From an uncultured delta proteobacterium (GTDB lineage Bacteria; Desulfobacterota; Desulfuromonadia; Geobacterales; DSM-12255): DNA of 64,000 nt. Shown here one piece after another: positions 4,820-34,506 of this stretch. A program made the position numbers and the translations under genes. Under the pieces are notes generated by a model. That model did no database searches. It was not told where the DNA came from and saw only the letters and a list, made by a program, of their open reading frames with translations. Each line of letters starts with the position of its first letter. Position 1 is the stretch's first letter. Location: contig CAWBBV010000007.1 in NCBI GenBank assembly GCA_963787125.1, forward strand, positions 256,001-320,000, written 5' to 3'.

Positions 4820-5713
4820 ATGGATACACTAGATATCCTGGAAAACGAATCAATCCGGATCATCCGCGAAGCGGTAGCGCAAGCTGAAAAACCGGCAATG
4901 CTCTATTCTATCGGCAAAGACTCTTCTGTGATGCTTCATCTGGCGCTGAAGGCGTTCTACCCGCTGAAACCGCCCTTGCCGCTGGTACATGTGGACACAA
5001 CCTGGAAATTCAAAGAGATGATAACCTTTCGCGACGAGACTGTTGCCCGGCTCGGTCTGGAGTTGATAACCTATACGAATGAAGAGGGGGTCGCGCAAGG
5101 GATCTCGCCATTCACCCATGGCAGCAAAGTCTACACTGATATCATGAAAACCGAGGCGCTGCGTAAAGTGCTGGATATGTTCCGTTTTGACATGATTTTC
5201 GGTGGTGCGCGCCGGGACGAGGAGAAGAGCCGGGCCAAGGAGCGGGTCTTCTCCTTTCGCGATGCGGGGCACAGGTGGGAGCCGCGCGGGCAGCGGCCCG
5301 AACTCTGGTCGATCCCGAATCTGCGCAAAAAGAAGGACGAGAGTTTCCGGGTTTTCCCGCTGTCGAACTGGACTGAACTTGATGTCTGGCGATATATTCA
5401 GCGCGAAAATATTCCGACCGTCCCGCTCTATTTTGCGGCAAAACGCCCGGTGGTAAAGCGTGACGGCCAGTGGCTGCTGCTCGATGACGAACGGCTGAAA
5501 CTTTTGCCGGGAGAAATGGCTGAAATGAGAATGATCCGTTTCCGAACTCTTGGTTGCTATCCGCTCACCGCCGGGGTCGAATCAACTGCTGCTACGGTCG
5601 CCGAAATAGTTGCCGAACTGGAAGCTGCCGACACCTCCGAGCGCTGTGGCCGGCTGATTGATTTTGATCAGGCGGGCAGCATGGAGAAAAAGAAGCAGGA
5701 GGGGTATTTCTGA
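4820..5713 (+). CDS. cysD: Sulfate adenylyltransferase subunit 2
   Basis: [45 protein letters not shown]. Confidence 0.96.
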
Positions 5714-7623
5714 TGAGCGGCGAAGTGCTGAAATTTCTCACTTGCGGCAGTGTCGATGACGGCAAATCAACCTTGATAGGACACCTGCTTTACCTGACGG
5801 GCAATATCCCTGTTGATCAGCTGCAAACTCTTGAGAGTGAAAGCGCCAGAATCGGCACCGCTGGAGGGGCCATGGACTATTCGCTGCTTCTTGACGGCCT
5901 GATGGCTGAGCGGGAGCAGGGGATTACCATAGATGTTGCTTATCGCTATTTCAACGCTTGCGGTCGCAAATTCATTGTTGCTGATACGCCGGGGCATGAA
6001 CAGTACACCCGCAACATGGCGACCGGTGCGTCTCAGTGTGATGCTGCGCTGATATTGGTGGATGTCCAGCAGGGGATCCTCCCCCAGACGCGGCGCCATG
6101 CTCTTATCTGCGGCTTGATGGGGATAACCCGTTTGCTCTTTGTCATCAACAAAATGGATCGTGTTGGCTTTGATGAAGTGGCCTACCGACGGGTGGAGAC
6201 CCAGAAGACAGCACTGCTTGCCGACCTTGAGAGTTTCGGTCTGAACCTTGTCGAATCAGCGGTCATACCGGTTTCCGCCCTGACCGGAGACAATCTGGCA
6301 ACAGTTTCCGCCAACATGGCCTGGTACTCCGGCGCAACGCTTCTTGAATGGCTTGCTGCTGTCGAACCGGGGTCGTGGCGGGATGCTGCAGCGCTCCGCT
6401 TGCCGGTGCAGTATGTCATCAAGGGGCAACGGGGCGGCGAGGGGTGGCAGCATACTGCTGCAGCTGAGCTAAAGAATGCTGTCGGCGGAACTTTTCGTGC
6501 CTATGCCGGCACTGTGACTTCAGGGTCGATTGCCTGCGGCGATGAGCTGATCTCTCTGCCGGCGGGACTGCCGGTAAAAGTCGCTTCAATACTGGCCGGT
6601 GACCGGCAGGTAGAGTCGGCGTCAGCCGGTATGGCTGTTGCGGTGACACTGACGGGGGAACACGATATTGTCAGCGGTGACCTGTTGGTTCCGTTACGAG
6701 AACGGCCTGAGGTTGCCGACCAGTTCAAGGTGCGACTAATCTGGATGGATGAAAGTCCGCTTTTTGCCGGTCGCCAGTACGACCTGCATGGCGCTGCCGG
6801 TGTTGCCAAGGCAGAAATAATGCGGCTGCGCAACCGGATAGAGCCGGAATCACTCCGGCGGCTGGCGACCCACAACCTTGCCAAGAACGATATTGCTGAA
6901 GCCGAAATTCACCTTTCCAGGCCGATCCCCTTCGACCCTTATGCCAAAAATCGCGAAACCGGCGCATTCATCCTTGTCGACCGCCTGACCAATGCCACTG
7001 CCTGCTGCGGCATGATTCTCCATTCACTGCGCAAAGGGGAAAACGTCCACTGGCAGCCGGAAACAGTCAGCCGTCAGACCCGCAGCGGCATCAAGGGGCA
7101 TGCCCCAATGGTTGTCTGGTTTACCGGGCTATCAGGTTCCGGCAAATCAACTGTCGCCAACGCCCTGGAGTCAAGGCTCAATGCCATGGGACGCCATACC
7201 ATGCTCCTGGACGGGGACAATATCCGCCACGGTCTTAACCGCGACCTTGGCTTTACCGAGACTGACCGGATCGAAAACGTCCGCCGCATCGGTGAAGTTG
7301 CCAAGTTGATGACAGATGCCGGCCTGATTGTTATTACAGCATTTATCTCCCCCTTCAGAGCGGAGCGGAATCTGGTTCGGGAGATGCTGCCCGAAGCAGA
7401 ATTCATCGAAATCTTTGTTGATACCCCGCTGGAAATCTGCGAACAGCGAGACCCCAAGGGGCTCTACAAAAAGGCGCGGCTGGGGCAGTTACCCAACTTC
7501 ACCGGCATCAGCTCTCCTTATGAAGCGCCACTCGATCCGGAGCTGGTAGTTGACACCACGACTGTTTCGCTTGAGGAAAGCGTGGAGAGGATACTGCACT
7601 TAATTGAAAGGCAGGGTAGATAG
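5713..7623 (+). CDS. cysNC: Bifunctional sulfate adenylyltransferase subunit 1 / adenylylsulfate kinase (CysN/CysC fusion, NodQ-like)
   Basis: [35 protein letters not shown]-terminal [12 protein letters not shown] and [14 protein letters not shown] kinase domain. Confidence 0.95.
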
Positions 7624-7625
7624 CC

Positions 7626-7709
7626 ATGATTGATTGCCCTAAAATTTCCATTGTCACCCCTCCTTCAATCAGGGGGAGTTCCTGGAAAAGACCATTCTTT
7701 TCGGTAGTT
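7626..7709 (+). pseudogene. Degenerate 5' fragment of GT2 glycosyltransferase (copy 1)
   Basis: Reads [28 protein letters not shown] across two 1-nt indels; matches the N-terminus of 9429..10391. Confidence 0.8.
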
Positions 7710-7738
7710 ATTGAATCCGAATTTCGGAGATATACCAT

Positions 7739-8008
7739 ATGGCAATGAACAATGAGCAACTCGAAATAGTTAAAAAAATGGTCATTGAGTATGGCGCAAG
7801 TCGTCTGATCCTTTTTGGTAGCATGCTTGACAATCCGACAGAGGCTAGAGACATCGATCTCGCTTGTGACGGTGTCTCCGGCTGGAAGCTGTTTGAGTTG
7901 GCTGCACGATTGGAAGAAGCGCTACACACGCCACTTGATCTTGTCCCTTTAACACCAGCAAGCAGATTTACCCGATTAATAGAAGAAAGGGGACAACGAT
8001 TACTATGA
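7739..8008 (+). CDS. Minimal nucleotidyltransferase (MNT) antitoxin
   Basis: 89 aa, LILFGS...DIDL motif and later PLDLV; overlaps the downstream HEPN gene by ATGA. Confidence 0.85.
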   Translation: MAMNNEQLEIVKKMVIEYGASRLILFGSMLDNPTEARDIDLACDGVSGWKLFELAARLEEALHTPLDLVPLTPASRFTRLIEERGQRLL

Positions 8009-8466
8009 CTTCAGCTCAACTGCGAGAAGAGATTGACATTGAAATGGACTGTCTCAGCACATTGGCGCAGGAGATTAACTCGCTACAAAAGGATGTAGAA
8101 GGACGTGAAGCTACTGTCCGGGAAAGGACCGCTGCGGCGGCATTTCTTGCCCAGTTCTATGGAGGGATTGAAAACATACTTAAGCGAATCCATCGTTACT
8201 ATGGACTGGACCTCCCGACAGGTGACACCTGGCACCTTGATTTATTTAGAAGGTTTTGTTCGCCTGCCCATGAATTAATGCCCCTGCTTTTTGAGGCGCA
8301 ACTTGCAATGGAGCTTTCACCTTTCAGGAAGTTTCGTCATGTTGTACACCATGGTTATGGATTTCAGGTTGAGTGGGAAAGGATCATTGCAGGGATTGAG
8401 TCTGTTGAGGGCGTTTTTGCCGCTTTCAGGGTCTCAGTGAACCGATTTGTAGACGATTTAAAGTGA
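8005..8466 (+). CDS. HEPN-domain (HepT-like) ribonuclease toxin
   Basis: [15 protein letters not shown], RxxxxH motif (FRHVVHHGY); paired with MNT. Confidence 0.82.
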
Positions 8467-8473
8467 GGTTGTC

Positions 8474-8614
8474 ATGACTACCCTCCCCAAAATATCCATA
8501 GTTACCCCCTCCTTCAACCAGGGGAAGTTTCTCGAAAAGACCATTCTCTCCGTGCTTGAGCAGGGATACCCCAATCTTGAGTACATCGTCATCGACGGCG
8601 GCAGTAATGTCTAA
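8474..8614 (+). pseudogene. Truncated 5' duplicate of GT2 glycosyltransferase (copy 2, 46 codons)
   Basis: [46 protein letters not shown]; near-identical to 9429 gene up to GGS, then diverges. Confidence 0.88.
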
Positions 8615-8619
8615 AGTCA

Positions 8620-8650
8620 TTTTAAGCGCGGAGTTGCAGAGGCATAGAGG
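8620..8650. repeat. Degenerate left arm of GxxExxY-associated palindromic repeat
   Basis: ttttaagcgcggagttgcagaggcatagagg resembles ttttaacgcagagccgcagaggcacagagg at 9063-9092. Confidence 0.65.
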
Positions 8651-9049
8651 GTGAGGCGTATGCATTTGAATGAAATTTCCAAATGTATTGTGGATGCAGC
8701 AATTGAAGTTCATAGGAATCTTGGTGGGCCAGGTCTTCTTGAAAATGTTTATGAAGAGGCATTGGCTTGGGAGTTGCTTCAGCGCGGTTTTATAGTTGAA
8801 AGGCAGCTTCTTGTGCCGATATTTTACAAAGGCAATGAACTGGGATCGCCACTTAAGCTTGATTTGTTGATTGAAAAACGCATTATCGTCGAAGTGAAAG
8901 CAACCTCGAATTATAACCCGATATTTGAAGCTCAGATTCTTACCTACCTCCGCATGATGGATCTCAAGGTTGGATTAGTCATCAATTTTGGTGAGAAATA
9001 TGTTAAAGATGGCATCCGGCGGGTGGTAAGCGGACTTATTGAACCGTAA
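8651..9049 (+). CDS. GxxExxY protein (PD-(D/E)xK nuclease-like)
   Basis: AIEVHRNLGGPGLLENVYEEAL (GxxExxY), LDLLIE..IIVEVKA, AQILTYLR, GLVINFG; start GTG 8651 or ATG 8660. Confidence 0.93.
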   Translation: MRRMHLNEISKCIVDAAIEVHRNLGGPGLLENVYEEALAWELLQRGFIVERQLLVPIFYKGNELGSPLKLDLLIEKRIIVEVKATSNYNPIFEAQILTYLRMMDLKVGLVINFGEKYVKDGIRRVVSGLIEP

Positions 9050-9063
9050 ATTCAAAAACAATT

Positions 9064-9223
9064 TTTAACGCAGAGCCGCAGAGGCACAGAGGAAAACAAA
9101 AATCCCAACAATGGGTTTCTATTTACTATGATTATTTGTTTATATAGTGGTTTTCACCGCGTCTCTGCGTCTTGTGTTAAATACAGGTTTTAAAAAGGTG
9201 TCAAGATGGGCGTAGAAGCTATC
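9064..9223. repeat. Palindromic element copy 1 (left arm 9064-9092, AT-rich spacer, right arm 9155-9181) plus RBS/ATG tail
   Basis: Direct repeat of 9286-9446 (offset 222-223 bp; about 2 substitutions and 1 indel); arms are imperfect inverted repeats built from 8-nt (x)cgcagag units. Confidence 0.9.
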
Positions 9224-9278
9224 TGCCAAAAATTTTTATCGTTACGCCGTCCTACGAAATGGTGGCAGTAATGTCTAA
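9206..9278 (+). pseudogene. Internally deleted 5' fragment of GT2 glycosyltransferase (copy 3)
   Basis: MGVEAI/(L)PKIFIVTPSY then ggtggcagtaatgtctaa (GGSNV*), the same end junction as copy 2. Confidence 0.7.
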
Positions 9279-9285
9279 AGTCATT

Positions 9286-9446
9286 TTAAACGCAGAGCCG
9301 CAGAGGCACAGAGGAAAACAAAAATCCCAACAATGGGTTTCTATTTACTATGATTATTTGTTTATTTAGTGGTTTTCTCCGCGTCTCTGCGTCTCTGTGT
9401 TAAATACAGGTTTTAAAAAGGTGTCAAGATGGGCGTAGAAGCTATC
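9286..9446. repeat. Palindromic element copy 2 plus RBS/ATG that starts the intact GT2 gene
   Basis: tttaaacgcagagccgcagaggcacagagg ... ctccgcgtctctgcgtctctgtgttaaa then atacaggttttaaaaaggtgtcaagATGggcgtagaagctatc. Confidence 0.9.
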
Positions 9447-10391
9447 CTACCCAAAATATCTATAGTTACCCCCTCCTTCAACCAGGGTAAGTTCCTCGAA
9501 AAGACTATCCTCTCCGTGCTGGAGCAGGGATACCCCAATCTTGAATATATAATTATCGACGGCGGCAGTACGGACGAGTCGGTGGATATTATCAAAAAGT
9601 ACGCAGACCGTTTGACTTATTGGGTCAGCGAGCCGGATCGGGGCCAGAGTCACGCCATCAATAAGGGCTTTGAGCGGGCTACGGGGGAGATCTTCGGCTG
9701 GTTGAATTCGGATGACTGGTATCATCCGGGGGCGCTGCAAGCGGTGGCTGAGGCTTTTGCCGCCAATCCTGAGGCCGGGGCGGTGGTTGGGGCTGGGGAG
9801 ATGCTGTTTGAATCAACCAGAGACGTCATCCTGGTTGAACCTTTTTCAGTGAATTTAACGACTTTGTATGGTGCTGTTGACAAGTTTTTCATGCAACCTT
9901 CCTGTTTGTTTACTCACACTGCATGGCTTGAGTGTGGTCCTCTTGATGAAAATTTGCACCTTGCAATGGATCTGGATCTCTGGTTGCGGGTTGCAAAAAA
10001 ATATCGATTTGCTTTGACAGATATGAACCTTTCCACAAGTCTGGTTCATCCTTCAGCAAAAACAAAGGCATTGGCTGCGCAATCTTTAGTAGATGCATGT
10101 CTTGTTATTATGCGACATGGGGGAGTCAATGAAGGTAGAGGACGGCTGGTTAAATTCGTCGAAGAACTGTACGAAACAAGAGACAGACTGATTGCGGCTA
10201 ATGATAATATTGAATTTATAGCCAAGGAAATTGCTGAAATCAATACAGTAAAGTCTGCAAAAGAAAGCTTTGTTGAGAAGCTGCAAGAAGAGTTGGCGGC
10301 GAAAGATGCCCGTTTAACAGCCATGGAAAACTCTTTAAGTTGGAGAATTACAGATCCATTCAGAAAGATAGCGAACAAAATTATGTCCTGA
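9429..10391 (+). CDS. Glycosyltransferase family 2 with C-terminal coiled coil
   Basis: [33 protein letters not shown]-terminal helical segment ending SLSWRITDPFRK. Confidence 0.92.
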   Translation: MGVEAILPKISIVTPSFNQGKFLEKTILSVLEQGYPNLEYIIIDGGSTDESVDIIKKYADRLTYWVSEPDRGQSHAINKGFERATGEIFGWLNSDDWYHPGALQAVAEAFAANPEAGAVVGAGEMLFESTRDVILVEPFSVNLTTLYGAVDKFFMQPSCLFTHTAWLECGPLDENLHLAMDLDLWLRVAKKYRFALTDMNLSTSLVHPSAKTKALAAQSLVDACLVIMRHGGVNEGRGRLVKFVEELYETRDRLIAANDNIEFIAKEIAEINTVKSAKESFVEKLQEELAAKDARLTAMENSLSWRITDPFRKIANKIMS

Positions 10392-22773: not shown

Positions 22774-22807
22774 TGCAAAATATTTATCTTATTTATCAGG
22801 CGCCTGA

Positions 22808-23928
22808 ATGAAAAAAATCCTCATAACCTTCGGCACCCGCCCTGAAGCTATCAAGATGGCTCCGGTAGTAGAGGTGCTTAAAAAAGAGCGCCGCTTCGAT
22901 GTGAAAGTCTGCGTCACGGCCCAGCACCGGCAGATGCTTGATCAGGTGCTGGAGCTGTTTGCGATCACACCGGATTTCGACCTGAACCTGATGAAGCCGG
23001 GGCAGGATCTGACGGACATTACCAGTAATGTGCTGCTCGGGATGCGCGGCGTGCTGCGAGAGTGGCGGCCGGACTGGCTGCTGGTGCATGGCGACACGAC
23101 CACGACCTTTGCTGCCGCCCTGGCAGCCTACTACGAAAAGGTGGCGGTGGGGCATGTGGAGGCTGGGCTGCGGACCGGCAACATTTACTCCCCCTGGCCG
23201 GAGGAGATGAACCGCCGCCTCGCCGGGGCGATTACTGCGCTCCATTTCGCCCCTACTGAACTGGCGCGGCAAAACCTGCTGCGGGAAGGGGTTGCCCCTG
23301 AATGCAGTCCACGTTACCGGTAACACGGTAATTGATGCCCTGCTGGAGGTGGTGGCGCGTATCAGGAACGATGCGGAATTAAAGGCTCGCTTTGCCCGGC
23401 AGTTCGACTTTCTTTCTCCAGGTAAGCGGCTGGTGCTGGTAACCGGCCACCGGCGGGAGAACTTTGGCGCCGGTTTCGAGCGGATCTGCAGCGCCCTGAA
23501 GAGCCTTGGTGGAACGGAATGATGTGGAGATCGTCTATCCGGTGCACTTGAATCCGAATGTGCAGGAGCCGGTGCGGCGGATTCTTGGAGCTGCGCCACG
23601 GGTGCACCTGATCGAGCCGCTCGATTATCTGCCTTTTGTGTATCTGATGGAGCGCTCAACCTTGATTATTACCGATTCGGGAGGGGTACAGGAAGAGGCG
23701 CCATCTCTGGGGAAGCCGGTACTGGTCATGCGCGATACCACCGAGCGGCCCGAGGCTGTGGTTGCCGGAACCGTAAAGCTGGTCGGTACGGACGAAGCGG
23801 CCATTGTCCGGGAGGCTGCCCTGCTACTTGATGATCAAGGAGCCTACCAGCGGATGGCACAGGCCCATAACCCCTATGGCGACGGTTTGGCTTGCGGGCG
23901 GATCGCCGGCATTCTCGGACAGGTATGA
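22808..23928 (+). CDS. wecB: UDP-N-acetylglucosamine 2-epimerase (non-hydrolysing); two +1 frameshifts (~23295, ~23506)
   Basis: [26 protein letters not shown] / [17 protein letters not shown] / [28 protein letters not shown] across three overlapping ORFs. Confidence 0.9.
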
Positions 23929-29799: not shown

Positions 29800-32700
29800 A
29801 TGAACAGTAAATTTGCAAAATGGGGCTTGTCACAACTGCTGATGTTAGTGATGCTCGTCGCAGCCGGTTCGGCATTTGCCGCCGCTGGTGATTCACTGCT
29901 TCACAACAGTAACAATCTCGGTACCAAGTATGGGACATGGGGCGTTACTGGTGGAACATACGGTCAATTTTCCTGTGCCACCTGCCATAACAAGACGACT
30001 AACAACGTCAAGCGGGTCGAAGGCTCGATACTTACCAAGTCGGTCACATTTAACAATATGACCGGATTTGGTGATGACTCGATCAGTCGCAGCACTTCAT
30101 TCCGGGTCTGCGAAGTCTGTCACACCCAGACAAAATATCACCAGTACAATAACACCGCTCAGTCTGGCGGCTTGACGCACCCTAACGGCGATTGTACTTC
30201 CTGCCACAAGCATAGCGATGCCTTCAGACCTTCTGCCTGCGATAGCTGCCATGGTCACAATGCTGCCAGCTCAAACCCGATAGTTACCGGACAGCATGCC
30301 GCGCATACTAATAACGTTGCAACCCTTGGCGTTAATTTCAGCTGCGCTGCCTGTCACGCTCCAACTGTCAGTGACGACACGACATTCAGTAATGCAGCCA
30401 ATCATAATAACGGTGTGAAAAACTACGGCGGCACCAACGCCGGTGCTTACACTGCCGGAACCGGCAACTGTACGGCAACCTGCCACACAGATGGCAAAGG
30501 TGGTGTTCCGGCAACTGCTGTCAACTGGAATGCCGGCCCTGCACTTGATTGCAAAGGCTGCCACGGCGGCGGTACCAGTCAGGCCGGTGAACCTGTTTAT
30601 ACCAGTGGCGCAGCCGGCAGCGCCACAGCAAATACCCACCCGAAGCATGTCGGCACAACCGGCGCCAATGCAACCTGTCAAAACTGCCACGGCGCAACCA
30701 TGAGCGGTACCGGTTTGAATGCCAGCGGCAAGCATGCAGATATGACTATCGATGTTGTCCAGGGTAACAGCAAAACATTTACCTACACAGTCGGCACCAA
30801 GACCTGTTCAACATCATCCTGCCACGGCGGTAATGGTATCTTTACTCCAGCAGCAGCCCAGTGGGGCGCCACCCTTAACTGTAACGGTTGCCACGGCGGC
30901 CCTGCAGCTCTCGGCAGCAACATCCTTGCCAGCGGCAAGCACACAGCACATATCAACAACGGCAACCTCGGAGCATTCGGCTGCGTTGAATGTCACGCCA
31001 AGACAGTATCAAGCGATACCGTCATTGGTACACCGGCAATGCACCTTAACAACATCATGAACTACTCCGGCGCCAAAGCCGGTAAGTCAAGCACCTACGC
31101 AGCAGGCAACTGTTCCGCCACCTACTGTCATACTGATGGTAAAGGGACAGCGAAGAGCATGGCTGCCAATCTCTGGACCGGTGCAACCACCCTTGACTGC
31201 AAAGGTTGCCACGGTTCCGACGCCTCCCCGGCCTTCACCAGCGTCGCTGGCGAGCCAAACTACACCAACGCCGGTGCCAACCTGGCTAAATCCAACAGCC
31301 ACCAGAAGCACACCACAGCCGGTGCCAGCAGCTGCGTAAGCTGCCATGGAACCACCGTTGACGCAGCCGGAGCCATTCTTGCCGGCGGCATCCACATTGA
31401 CAAGGCAATCACCGTAGTCCAAGGCGGAACCGCAACCCTGACCTACGGCGCCAACAAAACCTGTTCAACCAGCAGCTGCCACAGCGGCGGCGGCATCGTA
31501 GCATCAGTGGCAGCAGCCCAGTGGGGCGCCACCCTTAACTGTAACGGTTGCCACGGCGGCCCTGCAGCTCTCGGCAGCAACATCCTTGCCAGCGGCAAGC
31601 ACACAGCACATATCAACAACGGCAATCTCGGAGCATTCGGCTGCGTTGAATGTCACGCCAAGACAGTATCAAGCGATACCGTCATTGGTACACCGGCAAT
31701 GCACCTTAACAACATCATGAACTACTCCGGCGCCAAAGCCGGTAAGTCAAGCACCTACGCAGCAGGCAACTGTTCCGCCACCTACTGTCATACTGATGGT
31801 AAAGGGACAGCGAAGAGCATGGCTGCCAATCTCTGGACCGGTGCAACCACCCTTGACTGCAAAGGTTGCCACGGTTCCGACGCCTCCCCGGCCTTCACCA
31901 GCGTCGCTGGCGAGCCAAACTACACCAACGCCGGTGCCAACCTGGCTAAATCCAACAGCCACCAGAAGCACACCACAGCCGGTGCCAGCAGCTGCGTAAG
32001 CTGCCATGGAACCACCGTTGACGCAGCCGGAGCCATTCTTGCCGGCGGCATCCACATTGACAAGGCAATCACCGTAGTCCAAGGCGGAACCGCAACCCTG
32101 ACCTACGGCGCCAACAAAACCTGTTCAACCAGCAGCTGCCACAGCGGCGGCGGCATCGTAGCATCAGTGGCAGCAGCCCAGTGGGGCGCCACCCTTAACT
32201 GTAACGGTTGCCACGGCGGCCCTGCAGCTCTCGGCAGCAACATCCTTGCCAGCGGCAAGCACACAGCACATATCAACAACGGCAATCTCGGAGCATTCGG
32301 CTGCGTTGAATGTCACGCCAAGACAGTATCAAGCGATACCGTCATTGGTACACCGGCAATGCACCTTAACAACATCATGAACTACTCCGGCGCCAAAGCC
32401 GGTAAGTCAAGCACCTACGCAGCAGGCAACTGTTCCGCCACCTACTGTCATACTGATGGTAAAGGGACAGCGAAGAGCATGGCTGCCAATCTCTGGACCG
32501 GTGCAACCACCCTTGACTGCAAAGGTTGCCACGGTTCCGACGCCTCCCCGGCCTTCACCAGCGTCGCTGGCGAGCCAAACTACACCAACGCCGGTGCCAA
32601 CCTGGCTAAATCCAACAGCCACCAGAAGCACACCACAGCCGGTGCCAGCAGCTGCGTAAGCTGCCATGGAACCACCGTTGACGCAGCCGGAGCCATTCTT

Positions 32701-34506
32701 GCCGGCGGCATCCACATTGACAAGGCAATCACCGTAGTCCAAGGCGGAACCGCAACCCTGACCTACGGCGCCAACAAAACCTGTTCAACCAGCAGCTGCC
32801 ACAGCGGCGGCGGTATTGTCTCCGGCGTAGCTGCTGCTCAGTGGGGCGCAACTCTTGATTGTGCCGGTTGTCATGGTAACAAAGCCAACGCTGCAACCAA
32901 GCTGTCCGGCGCTCATAATTCTCACTTGAACAGTGCGTCAACGGGTGGAAACTTCAGCTGCGTAGATTGCCACGCAAATACAGTATCAAGCGATACAGTA
33001 ATCAGCAACACAGCTAATCACATGAACAGCCTGAAGAACTTCTCCGGCGCCAAGGCTGGAAAAAATGTAACCTGCGCAACCATCTACTGTCACTCCAACG
33101 GCAGAGGTAGTTTCGCTGTTATCCCGACATGGACCAGTGGCACGAACCTTGATTGTAACGGTTGCCATGGTAGCGCTGCTGCACCTCTCAGCACAAACTA
33201 TGCACACACAACACACGTTGTCACCAAGGGCTTTACCTGTAATTACTGCCACAGTGCTACAACCACCAATGGTACAAGTATAACCGGCTCTACTCACATC
33301 GACGGCAGCGTTAATATTCAGGTCGGTGCTTCATTAACATTCAATTCCAAGTCAGTAAGTTTCACCGGTGCAGGTACGACCTGTAGCAATATCTCCTGCC
33401 ACTCACCAGGAGCAGGAGCTAATGCAGGTACTGCTACTTGGGGTGTGAAAGCTACTTGCGAAACCTGTCACCCGAAAGCCGGACTCTCCGGTAACCACGC
33501 TGTCCATATGGGTGCTCTTACCCTTACTGACAGTGCAATACTTTACAACATGACTGCTAACCGCACTCCGGTTGCTAACGACACAGTCAAGCAGTACGGT
33601 TTTGGTTGTGCAAGCTGTCACCCGATGGATATTGCCAACCACCTTAACGGCTCAATCGACGTTGATATGGGCGCCAAGGTTGCCGGGGTCGGCACAATCC
33701 GCTTCCTCAACTCGACAACAGCCGGCCAGCTGCCTAGCTACTCTAGCGGAGCATGCAGCAATATTTACTGCCATAGTAATGCTTCAAGGGTTGCCACCGA
33801 GCTTGTCTACAAACCGACCCCAGCGTGGGTAGGTGGTTCATTCACTGGCGATCGCTGCGCTGCCTGCCATGCAAATCAGCCGGTTACAGGCGCCCATTCT
33901 GCTCACGCAGTCGGTAATCATACTGACAATATCTATAATGGCAAAAATGGTAAAATCGCTACCAGCGGCAGAGCTAATACTGCTCACGGAAATCCAGATA
34001 ACTCCACTACAATCGGCTGTTATATCTGCCACCAGGGGACTGTAACCAGCAAGGCTAACGACCTGAATGTCAAGTGCGTAGGTTGTCACTACTCCGGCAA
34101 CACAGTCGGCGCTACCCTTAAAGGCGTTGCGACTATCGCAAATCTCAAGAACCATGTTAACGGTACACGCGAGATTCAGTTCCTCGCTGTCAACGTAAAA
34201 AGCAAAGCCCAGATCAGAAACGAAAGCTTCAATTTCTACTCAGGTGTCTGGCAGCGTAGCTCATACAAAAACATGTCAACACTCTCATACGACACAGCCA
34301 AAGTTGCTTTGGATACAGCATCTATGTGGCATCCAGGTTCGCCTATGCAGAGCAGCTGTACCAATGTTGCCTGTCACAACCTGACAAACAAGTTTGTCAA
34401 ATACAGTTCAGCTAACGGTAAGGGCATTGGTCTCAAACCGGTATTCTGGAACCTTGCAAACTGGAACGATGCCAACAAGTGTATGGACTGTCACGACAAG
34501 CTCTAA
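29800..34506 (+). CDS. Giant multiheme c-type cytochrome (CxxCH/CxxxxCH-domain, extracellular type), ~41 heme motifs
   Basis: GGAGGA RBS before ATG 29800; signal peptide ending AFA; my count is 29 CxxCH + 1 CxxxCH + 11 CxxxxCH; rich in T/A/G/S/N. Confidence 0.92.
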   Translation: MNSKFAKWGLSQLLMLVMLVAAGSAFAAAGDSLLHNSNNLGTKYGTWGVTGGTYGQFSCATCHNKTTNNVKRVEGSILTKSVTFNNMTGFGDDSISRSTSFRVCEVCHTQTKYHQYNNTAQSGGLTHPNGDCTSCHKHSDAFRPSACDSCHGHNAASSNPIVTGQHAAHTNNVATLGVNFSCAACHAPTVSDDTTFSNAANHNNGVKNYGGTNAGAYTAGTGNCTATCHTDGKGGVPATAVNWNAGPALDCKGCHGGGTSQAGEPVYTSGAAGSATANTHPKHVGTTGANATCQNCHGATMSGTGLNASGKHADMTIDVVQGNSKTFTYTVGTKTCSTSSCHGGNGIFTPAAAQWGATLNCNGCHGGPAALGSNILASGKHTAHINNGNLGAFGCVECHAKTVSSDTVIGTPAMHLNNIMNYSGAKAGKSSTYAAGNCSATYCHTDGKGTAKSMAANLWTGATTLDCKGCHGSDASPAFTSVAGEPNYTNAGANLAKSNSHQKHTTAGASSCVSCHGTTVDAAGAILAGGIHIDKAITVVQGGTATLTYGANKTCSTSSCHSGGGIVASVAAAQWGATLNCNGCHGGPAALGSNILASGKHTAHINNGNLGAFGCVECHAKTVSSDTVIGTPAMHLNNIMNYSGAKAGKSSTYAAGNCSATYCHTDGKGTAKSMAANLWTGATTLDCKGCHGSDASPAFTSVAGEPNYTNAGANLAKSNSHQKHTTAGASSCVSCHGTTVDAAGAILAGGIHIDKAITVVQGGTATLTYGANKTCSTSSCHSGGGIVASVAAAQWGATLNCNGCHGGPAALGSNILASGKHTAHINNGNLGAFGCVECHAKTVSSDTVIGTPAMHLNNIMNYSGAKAGKSSTYAAGNCSATYCHTDGKGTAKSMAANLWTGATTLDCKGCHGSDASPAFTSVAGEPNYTNAGANLAKSNSHQKHTTAGASSCVSCHGTTVDAAGAILAGGIHIDKAITVVQGGTATLTYGANKTCSTSSCHSGGGIVSGVAAAQWGATLDCAGCHGNKANAATKLSGAHNSHLNSASTGGNFSCVDCHANTVSSDTVISNTANHMNSLKNFSGAKAGKNVTCATIYCHSNGRGSFAVIPTWTSGTNLDCNGCHGSAAAPLSTNYAHTTHVVTKGFTCNYCHSATTTNGTSITGSTHIDGSVNIQVGASLTFNSKSVSFTGAGTTCSNISCHSPGAGANAGTATWGVKATCETCHPKAGLSGNHAVHMGALTLTDSAILYNMTANRTPVANDTVKQYGFGCASCHPMDIANHLNGSIDVDMGAKVAGVGTIRFLNSTTAGQLPSYSSGACSNIYCHSNASRVATELVYKPTPAWVGGSFTGDRCAACHANQPVTGAHSAHAVGNHTDNIYNGKNGKIATSGRANTAHGNPDNSTTIGCYICHQGTVTSKANDLNVKCVGCHYSGNTVGATLKGVATIANLKNHVNGTREIQFLAVNVKSKAQIRNESFNFYSGVWQRSSYKNMSTLSYDTAKVALDTASMWHPGSPMQSSCTNVACHNLTNKFVKYSSANGKGIGLKPVFWNLANWNDANKCMDCHDKL
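30850..32813 (+). repeat. Three near-perfect in-frame 660-bp tandem repeats (220 aa, 6 heme motifs each)
   Basis: Sequence repeats at +660 and +1320; only one synonymous difference seen (C at 30966 vs T at 31626/32286). Confidence 0.95.

Follow-up and report, generated by a model that had tools for sequence, protein, structure and literature searches.

The window analysed here is a stretch of 64,000 nucleotides (positions 256,001 to 320,000 of contig CAWBBV010000007.1, assembly GCA_963787125.1) on the 605-kb contig C7 of an uncultured delta proteobacterium, whose genome, G000, is a 4.2-Mb draft in 30 contigs. Within it, an intact gene for a family 2 glycosyltransferase (GT2) is preceded by three relics of GT2 gene starts, with small selfish cassettes lying in between. 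The region is best read as a scar array of recombination, gained without a dedicated insertion enzyme. At a probability of about 0.6, serial one-sided recombination has imported cassettes together with the start of a donor GT2 gene, unequal crossing-over has duplicated whole units, and toxin-antitoxin addiction has opposed their loss. The array and the gene that precedes it are made up as follows.

5713 to 7623, plus strand: cysNC, a sulfate adenylyltransferase subunit fused to adenosine 5'-phosphosulfate kinase (PF01583, E 6e-70; PF00009, E 8e-42)
7626 to about 7705, plus strand: GT2 start relic 1, 85.7% identical to relic 2 over 63 nt
7739 to 8008, plus strand: MNT-type nucleotidyltransferase (antitoxin-like), first gene of cassette 1 (PF18765 and NF047752 below cut-off; motif by eye)
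8005 to 8466, plus strand: HepT-like HEPN RNase (toxin-like), second gene of cassette 1 (PF20797, HepT-like_2, 85.8 bits, cut-off 27)
8474 to 8606, plus strand: GT2 start relic 2, 44 GT2 codons (PF00535, E 1.4e-9)
8607 to 8650, plus strand: junction and left arm of the GxxExxY unit, recurring at 9271-9314 (89%) and in the related genome G008
8651 to 9049, plus strand: gene for a predicted GxxExxY PD-(D/E)XK nuclease, cassette 2 (PF13366, E 5e-37; TIGR04256)
9062 to 9185, plus strand: hairpin unit 1, a left-arm copy, 62-nt spacer and right arm (-38.4 kcal/mol, z -5.05; inverted repeats I3 and I4)
9206 to 9270, plus strand: GT2 start relic 3, by alignment the live gene's own start with an internal deletion
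9271 to 9428, plus strand: second GxxExxY unit without open reading frame (ORF), comprising the junction, hairpin unit 2 and the ribosome-binding-site region of the live GT2 (-42.5 kcal/mol, z -5.46; in tandem with 9046-9223)
9429 to 10391, plus strand: intact GT2 glycosyltransferase, 320 aa (PF00535, E 2.9e-31)

An earlier note on this DNA, made from the letters alone, had reported four copies of the GT2 5' end, at 7626, 8474, 9206 and 9429, and all four were recovered at these positions by repeat search, alignment and translation. Relic 1 begins 2 nt past the cysNC stop, carries a 1-nt deletion and loses its match near codon 27; in an alignment read by eye, third codon positions hold most of its differences from relic 2. 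The ORF of relic 2 has 46 codons, with its stop at 8614, and its GT2 part is cut after codon 44 (DGGS); positions 8478-8606 are 90% identical to live-gene positions 9442-9570 over 129 nt. The first 18 nt of relic 3 match the live GT2 start exactly, as part of a segment (9173-9223) that is 100% identical to 9396-9446. They are followed by about 37 diverged nt (codons 7-18), in which the GT2 N-terminus is readable in another frame, and then by the internal deletion. The end of relic 3 is the junction that also ends relic 2, GGCAGTA followed by ATGTCTAAAG.

The relics appear to be displaced starts of earlier alleles and not decayed duplicates. Synonymous and non-synonymous codon differences were counted over 41 codons, giving 10:1 for relic 2 against the live gene of the window, 18:4 for the relic against the live gene of G008, and 12:2, 13:2 and 5:2 for the relics of the related genome G022 against each other; true GT2 orthologs give 18:2, 19:4 and 6:1. 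For relic 2, the 10 synonymous changes among 11 yield p = 8e-6 against an assumed neutral share of 25%. Because a dead duplicate left in place would spread its differences over the codon positions, the observed excess of synonymous changes suggests that the relics of G000, G008 and G022 diverged as parts of working genes. The copies had been described in the earlier note as differing in decay; the 10:1 ratio points instead to a displaced allele in the case of relic 2.

Arrays of this kind recur among relatives of the window's genome. The DNA of the GT2 start was searched for in 41 relatives and in all 23 genomes of the window's family, the Geobacteraceae, and multiple matches on a single contig were found in G016 (8), G022 (5) and G008. 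Cassettes occupy the GT2-start position in 8 of the 12 readable family genomes, and five of these eight (G000, G008, G016, G020 and G022) have relics as well. Given the arrays in G008, G016, G020 and G022, the layout is not a one-off; a one-off decayed tandem duplication was the case that the earlier note had named as counting against its idea. According to Pfam matches of the intervening ORFs, G016 carries nine relics and about ten cassettes, all on one strand, upstream of an intact GT2; the GxxExxY unit occurs three times there, with the ORF deleted in two. G022 carries six relics with five toxin-antitoxin pairs between them (three PIN pairs, DUF2281 with PemK, and NTP_transf_2 with HepT), and its array ends in a different GT2. 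The orders of the other three arrays are given below.

G016: antitoxin and PIN; relic; DUF4160 and DUF2442; relic; deleted GxxExxY; DUF2281-like and PIN; relic; arm remnants; relic; intact GxxExxY; relic; DUF5615 and DUF433; relic; lone 65-aa gene; relic; deleted GxxExxY; relic; DUF2281 and PemK; relic; UPF0175 and DUF3368; intact GT2
G008: MazE and PIN; antitoxin and PIN; relic; GxxExxY with the window's junction; hairpin unit; short relic; insertion-sequence-like insertion; second junction and empty hairpin unit; broken PIN pair; SLFN/AlbA_2 gene; GT2
G020: MazE and PIN; 16-codon relic; PIN pair; GT2

The comparison of the cysNC-GT2 junction that the earlier note had proposed yields both empty and differently loaded alleles. 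The conserved gene 5' of the array, cysNC, runs straight into the GT2 ortholog in G015, which represents the empty allele. A different MNT/HEPN pair lies between cysNC and GT2 in G010, a 23S_rRNA_IVP (four-helix-bundle) gene with its own arms lies directly 5' of the GT2 ortholog in G001 (L023:2576-2962), and another GxxExxY gene lies directly upstream of the ortholog in G013, in each case with no relic. Other sugar genes occupy the GT2-start position in G007 and G019, and no cassette was seen there in G003, which was read without Pfam. On contig C220 of G010 (L016:10097-10238), the DNA after cysNC consists of a GT2 start relic interrupted by two stop codons and, beyond it, unrelated sequence free of cassettes; therefore, relics mark replacement of the downstream locus as such. 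The central proposal of the earlier note, that cassettes repeatedly entered one operon position and left dead starts behind, thus holds for the recurrent landing place and for the dead starts upstream of a live gene, whereas nothing shows a dedicated system.

The search was extended to 151 genomes of the order (the 23 of the window's family and 128 of four other families) with the 47-aa GT2 N-terminus as query, and 150 of 234 matches were listed. Ten of the 150 matches listed sit in open frames shorter than 100 aa, all ten of them in 6 of the 23 family genomes; among the matches listed, none from the 128 genomes of the four other families sits in such a frame. Homologs of the window's MNT/HepT pair were found in four genomes of other families, one directly 5' of a GT2-like gene and three elsewhere, numbers that are too few to use. 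The first of these (L109:2919-4662 in G030, from another family of the order) is 58-60% identical at the amino acid level and stops 2 nt short of the ATG of a sugar-locus gene whose translation, read by eye, looks glycosyltransferase-like.

Several details of the related arrays stand apart. The short relic of G008 is split by an insertion of about 1.3 kb (L014:5745-7060) that has inverted ends, bears two ORFs on the other strand and looks like an IS3-type element by eye. The arms of the 23S_rRNA_IVP gene in G001 read into the GT2 N-terminus as PSPEP repeats, and remnants of the same kind of arm occur inside the G016 array (L013:7680-7440).

Both junctions were examined for 25 cassettes, 17 of which directly precede a GT2 start. 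Where the same cassette was found in two genomes, its right junction is homologous and its left junction is different, as in four pairs:

65-aa/PIN pair: left junction at relic codon ~100 in G016 and ~90 in G022
DUF2281/PemK pair: left junction at codon 78 in G016 and ~107 in G022
antitoxin/PIN pair: left junction at codon ~97 in G008 and ~103 in G022
PIN pair: left junction at the GxxExxY arm in G016 and at codon 85 in G020

The relic ends are scattered as well, falling at codons ~19, 27, 38, 44-47, 70, 78, 85, 88 and 100-120, which disfavours a fixed recombination site. A right junction that is inherited and a left junction that is made anew at an arbitrary place are predicted by one-sided recombination and not by a site-specific system. 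Break points that range from codon 19 to about 120, and that differ between genomes for one and the same cassette, speak against a dedicated cassette system. One homologous and one arbitrary junction would fit the variable left ends, the inherited right ends and the allelic divergence of the relics. The codon-44 junction before the GxxExxY unit is repeated: it is the same in relic 2, relic 3 and G008, and a variant of it is present three times in G016. If a relic farther upstream crossed over unequally with the live start, the outcome would have to be such a tandem copy of the whole unit, with a middle relic that ends at the old junction, and the repetition is thus an exception that supports the same model.

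The cassettes of the window are of two kinds. In cassette 1, the MNT gene overlaps the HepT-like gene by 4 nt and its translation shows a GS..DID (GS..DxD) motif by eye, with profile matches under the cut-offs (PF18765, E 9e-5, 23 bits, cut-off 26.9; NF047752, E 8e-6, 25.7 bits, cut-off 60). The translation of the HepT-like gene contains an R-x4-H motif, and its stop lies 7 nt ahead of the relic 2 ATG. Together, positions 7739-8466 would encode a type VII-like MNT/HepT pair, solid on the HEPN side and under the cut-offs on the MNT side, with toxin and antitoxin roles that are predicted. In cassette 2, the GxxExxY gene scores 132.8 bits with TIGR04256 (cut-off 35) and 127.2 bits with PF13366 (PDDEXK_3; cut-off 22), and its translation carries both G-x-x-E-x-x-Y and E-x-K. 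The protein is 89% and 85% identical at the amino acid level to copies at loci L029 and L030, and the arms around the gene are imperfect inverted repeats of a motif of about 8 nt. Profile matches and folding agree with the earlier description of an MNT-HEPN pair, a GxxExxY gene with palindromic arms and an empty palindromic unit between the GT2 copies.

The origin of the empty unit is another matter. Two units of about 222 bp stand in tandem, with 93.8% identity over 195 nt, and the empty unit is one of them; it consists of the junction, left arm, 62-nt spacer and right arm. Such a unit would be expected if the left-arm copies on either side of the GxxExxY ORF (8626-8650 and 9068-9092) had recombined. 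Because the junction is that of relic 2, the tandem is that of G008, and three such units occur in G016, relic 3 and the empty unit are better read as a duplicated GxxExxY unit that later lost its ORF than as the cassette entry in its own right that had been suggested.

No mobility gene was found near the array, as the earlier note had remarked. A Pfam scan of 27 ORFs of at least 110 aa in positions 1-29447 found no family of integrases or transposases (the list had 28 such ORFs, of which the reverse-strand ORF at 22796-23659 was left out; two of the 27 are nested or overlapping frames), and the tyrosine recombinase family PF00589 has eight matches in the genome and none on C7. The 400-bp unit and the GT2 start have no further copy in the 4.2-Mb genome and therefore are not a dispersed repeat, so that a miniature inverted-repeat transposable element is ruled out. 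Known RNA families have no match in 7400-9800 at E up to 1, a promoter scan of 7400-9700 was no better than shuffled sequence (4 vs 3.1), and a terminator scan likewise did not rise above shuffles. A search for plasmid or phage carriers of the region gave only a 107-nt GT2 match on three Nitratidesulfovibrio plasmids and no phage match.

The route proposed for the growth of the array relies on the first 130-360 nt or so of GT2, which are unusually conserved at the DNA level and would serve as a homology anchor; the GT2 5' block is 75.7% identical to a glycosyltransferase gene on a Nitratidesulfovibrio plasmid. Strains differ in the selfish cassette that is fused upstream of the GT2 start. DNA from a related strain, with a cassette fused to its own GT2 start, would enter and recombine on its right side by homology inside GT2. 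Its left side would be joined either within the resident GT2 by illegitimate recombination or, out of register, to a resident GT2 start, and the incoming DNA could be linear or a small circle (insertion-duplication). The resident start would then persist as a dead relic while the donor cassette and donor GT2 start head the operon, so that the gene would stay intact and the product would be tolerated; events within the body of the gene would kill GT2 and are not seen. Repeated rounds would stack relics and cassettes. With two GT2 starts in place, whole units could be duplicated or deleted by unequal crossing-over, which would account for the window's second GxxExxY unit and for the three of G016, and recombination between two left-arm copies would delete the GxxExxY ORF to leave a hairpin unit. 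The loss of toxin-antitoxin pairs would be counter-selected by addiction, such that arrays tend to grow. The GxxExxY ORF, which is non-addictive, is the one most often deleted (in two of three units in G016 and in one unit each in G000 and G008), which fits a role of addiction in opposing toxin-antitoxin loss. The array would presumably be transcribed together with the operon.

Layouts of relic, cassette and intact gene are also found at other places in the window's genome and in G020. At C16:6251-11700, an intact hsdR-like gene of 1126 aa (9631-6251) comes after AbiEi/AbiEii (11379-9765), and these in turn come after a relic of 62 codons of the gene's start (11680-11384, minus strand), which matches the live start at 89.6% identity over 192 bp. 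At C4:1500-5000, a 460-aa SLFN/AlbA_2-HATPase_c_4 gene and a Fic gene stand between three to four repeats of the start of a Vsr endonuclease gene (79-173 bp, identity 84-95%), with Vsr, Fic and SLFN confirmed by Pfam. A mirrored case is present at C7:214500-221500, 35-41 kb upstream of the window start, where five direct repeats of 46-158 bp (85-96% identical) consist of the last 55 nt or so of a glycosyltransferase-like gene, with a C-terminal SLSWRITKPLRW motif, and about 100 nt with periodic GGGAACTG-type arms. The intervals between these repeats hold two identical copies of MNT/HepT, a HigB-type pair, an antitoxin/PIN pair and a further pair in opposite orientation, and the intact glycosyltransferase-like gene lies at 221480-220605 on the minus strand. 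A second site in G020 (L017:14105-16661) has a start relic of a GT2 paralog, cut near codon 43, then a SLFN/AlbA_2 gene and then the intact paralog; this SLFN gene is very similar by eye to the one 5' of GT2 in G008.

Two broader associations were tried and set aside. Bracketing by gene-end repeats was considered as a property of all toxin-antitoxin loci in the window's genome and was seen at 9 of 50 toxin loci, compared with 12 of 400 sites chosen at random (Fisher p = 1.3e-4), but four of the nine belong to one array. A general tie between GxxExxY genes and duplicated gene starts was rejected too: direct flanking repeats of at least 40 nt occur at 29 of 78 loci against 7 of 70 shifted controls, and they are mostly tandem hairpin units by the ORF. 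GT2-start relics were found at only two Geobacteraceae loci among 80 GxxExxY loci from many phyla, and the other five GxxExxY genes of the window's genome are intergenic and relic-free, so that the earlier expectation of duplicated gene starts around such cassettes is not borne out for GxxExxY genes in general.

A number of observations count against serial one-sided recombination, and part of them would suit a simpler history, in which the GT2 start was duplicated in tandem in place and decayed, the cassettes came by unrelated routes, and gene conversion kept the copies alike. The relics are closest to copies in the same genome; relic 2 of the window is 90% identical to the live gene and 76-86% to orthologs. 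This closeness fits donors that are close relatives, or duplication in place with later gene conversion. The relics of G016 differ by near 1:1 (4:4, 7:7, 6:4 and 5:5), changes that look neutral and carry no allelic signal, although these ratios and the many internal deletions mark the G016 relics as older or more decayed and hence uninformative either way. Whole units have clearly been doubled in place, as in the 222-bp tandem, the three GxxExxY units of G016 and the two identical MNT/HepT pairs at C7:215.8 and 219.8 kb. One-sided recombination leaves unaccounted for the 37 or so diverged nt in relic 3, which are flanked by 51 nt with 100% identity to the live unit, and neither a donor nor a circle nor a recombination intermediate has been observed. 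Nor does the mode extend to toxin-antitoxin genes in general, given that 41 of the 50 toxin loci in the window's genome lack a bracketing repeat. Two bracketed cases have other causes: HicAB at C27:528-1620 lies within a perfect 46-bp repeat of a tRNA 3' end and looks like an integrase-less islet, and a HigBA-like pair at C9:93465-94389, outside the 50 loci, lies between perfect 70-bp hairpins resembling repetitive extragenic palindromes, which also occur elsewhere in the genome. Duplication in place is nonetheless judged unlikely, since it accounts neither for a different selfish cassette in each interval, fused to the next ATG, nor for the same cassettes reordered in G016, G022, G008 and G020, and since the synonymous excess in G000, G008 and G022 is unexpected for a dead duplicate.

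The tight ends of the cassettes raise a different objection. In 8 of the 17 cassette-to-GT2 junctions, the last cassette gene lacks a separate stop, and the TGA or TAA that closes it overlaps the GT2 ATG (as ATGA or TAATG); six others leave 1-7 nt, and three overlap further. The left leaders are short, about 0-50 nt, and such tight ends in eight cassette types are not predicted by random illegitimate joining. On the assumption made here, they are old, compacted donor junctions combined with selection for translational coupling of GT2. Alternatively, an enzyme encoded elsewhere could insert promoterless cassettes at the start codon of a target and duplicate the gene start, as an integron analogue with the gene start as its attachment site. 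This start-directed mechanism is kept as a rival because start-codon precision and short leaders are not predicted by random joining, and it would also suit cassettes that are trimmed to their ORFs on both sides and all co-oriented, the layout of relic, cassette and gene at unrelated genes (vsr, the hsdR-like gene and the G020 GT2 paralog) with defence-type cargo, and the presence of one SLFN/AlbA_2 cassette directly 5' of two different GT2 genes in G008 and G020. It is considered improbable, more so than duplication in place, in view of left break points that are scattered and differ for the same cassette, the lack of a shared motif at the cassette ends in the 25 junction pairs, the absence of a recombinase on C7, and the 10% synonymous divergence of relic 2 from the live gene, unlike a fresh target-site duplication. 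Far less probable still is an assembly artefact in which starts of GT2 paralogs were mis-joined from short reads. The genome is a 30-contig draft, and the 222-bp tandem is spanned by no contig of the public runs compared, such that its copy number rests on the draft assembly. The public run X1, which is possibly the source sample, nevertheless reproduces 8499-8666 and 9000-9194 with 0 and 1 differences. The same architecture is found in four other independently assembled genomes, among which G008 shares the junction sequence and the same tandem of a GxxExxY unit and an empty hairpin unit. The copies are 81-90% alike and not identical, so that collapse or mis-joining would not be easy. Any one public run contains at most 0.16 of the sampled words, and the uncovered parts of the stretch are uninformative. 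Contigs of run X2 show other joints (for example 8390 to 9450, from the HEPN end straight to the GT2 start); they are mostly 85-95% alike and probably come from other organisms, and at most hint at differently loaded alleles. The comparative data support accretion and leave a dedicated system unsupported.

The GxxExxY genes have features of their own. At all six GxxExxY loci of the window's genome and at loci L029-L108, each gene has its own pair of inverted arms with a motif every 8 nt or so, in an arm sequence that is locus-specific, and many ORF-less hairpin units stand in tandem at C7:230300-233800. Inverted repeats lie within 300 nt at 58 of 80 GxxExxY loci, a count made without a control set. 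The proteins are 61-77% identical across more than 10 phyla (among them Chloroflexota, Planctomycetota, Verrucomicrobiota and Acidobacteriota, and even an archaeal bin), and therefore are likely to have been transferred frequently. A role as homing nuclease for the DGGS site is unsupported, as the codon-44 junction represents one shared event, the same in G000 and G008 with a variant in G016.

The neighbourhood of the array is that of a glycan locus. The intact GT2 is the first gene of a locus of about 18 kb that extends to about 27.4 kb and contains GT4/GT2, radical SAM/SPASM, methyltransferase and epimerase genes. One of these, a UDP-N-acetylglucosamine 2-epimerase at 22796-23925, is open only in its C-terminal part (23506-23925, profile positions 212-346 of 347) and may be a broken or mis-started gene. 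On the other side of the array lies a further gene:

4820 to 5713: cysD

Farther along the window, the minus strand of 31087-32742 holds a perfect tandem repeat with three identical 111-aa ORF segments at a spacing of 660 bp (31087-31422, 31747-32082 and 32407-32742).

The array shares traits with several known systems. Superintegrons carry toxin-antitoxin cassettes, and the array likewise is a one-directional row of small, trimmed and mostly promoterless cassettes beside a fixed point, with many toxin-antitoxin pairs, shared and reordered between genomes; in the window, G016 and G022, all cassettes lie on the array strand. Unlike an integron, it has no IntI-like gene, either on C7 or among the scanned ORFs, and 14 of the 17 junctions leave at most 7 nt or overlap the ATG, which leaves no room for attC, an argument from space and not from an attC model. 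Moreover, what is repeated is not a recombination site but part of a protein-coding gene, and its 3' end varies. The description in the earlier note, integron-like in effect without attC or IntI, is therefore apt. Contact-dependent inhibition (CDI) and Rhs arrays of orphan toxin/immunity modules are thought to grow when recombination with an incoming allele takes place in the conserved part and the old tip is pushed aside, with the fragments permitting later homologous exchange. As in cdiA and rhs arrays, a conserved fragment of the main gene precedes each module in G000, G008, G016, G020 and G022, and the array of 3'-end relics at C7:214.5-221.5 kb is a direct counterpart. The GT2 arrays differ in that the displaced piece is a 5' start upstream of the gene, in that the main gene is a glycosyltransferase and not a toxin, and in that the modules are independent genes (PIN, PemK, HEPN, PD-(D/E)XK and others) and not alternative GT2 ends with an immunity gene.

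Accretion of integrative elements at tRNA genes or other gene ends also leaves a row of partial gene copies through serial insertions with replacement ends, and the HicAB case with its 46-bp tRNA repeat is a classical example. Attachment-site repeats, however, have a fixed extent and come with an integrase, whereas the relics here range from about 19 to 120 codons with no integrase nearby. Homology-facilitated illegitimate recombination and insertion-duplication by circles, which are known from laboratory transformation experiments, likewise give one homologous and one arbitrary junction, and they leave the target intact if the homologous piece includes the gene end; a full-text search found no report of natural multi-unit arrays built by such recombination around toxin-antitoxin cassettes. 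The GxxExxY gene within its inverted arms resembles hairpin-bounded ORF cassettes such as the intervening sequences of 23S rRNA, to which we take the 23S_rRNA_IVP gene at the GT2 position in G001 to be related, going by the name of its Pfam family. Cassettes of that kind, in contrast, are usually intergenic and have no gene-start relic. By analogy, then, the array would be superintegron-like in effect and closest in mechanism to the displaced-tip cdiA/rhs arrays, mirrored to the 5' end and with unrelated cargo, and to insertion-duplication or homology-facilitated illegitimate recombination of the laboratory kind.

A bolder proposal, which is speculative and rather doubtful at present, is that conserved gene ends such as the first 45-120 codons or so of GT2 act as portable attachment sites of a recombinase-independent, RecA-driven platform. 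Units of relic and cassette would loop out as circles between repeated starts, re-enter any homologous start, whether in that genome or in a different one, while leaving the gene unbroken, and be kept by toxin-antitoxin addiction. If true, this would be a general route for the spread of toxin-antitoxin and defence genes without mobility genes, with integron-like reservoirs in surface-glycan and restriction loci, and the start-codon-precise fusions would be a requirement of the platform, through translational coupling of the target gene, and not chance.

Gene-start relic arrays with toxin-antitoxin cassettes were not found described in a full-text search, which had most subscription journals outside its reach. 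How chromosomal toxin-antitoxin and small defence genes move without mobility genes is an old open question, and the arrays offer a readable record of such moves. They reveal which junction is inherited and which is newly made, that the target gene is kept intact, and that whole units are duplicated and lost. The model that they suggest is concrete and testable, in that the homology of a conserved gene end would serve as anchor for a single join at an arbitrary point, after which unequal crossing-over and an addiction ratchet would act. Up to about ten selfish cassettes can be accommodated at the head of a surface-glycan operon with its first gene retained. This matters for annotation, as relics can easily be mistaken for small genes or N-terminal extensions, and the arrays bear on how glycan loci are exchanged.

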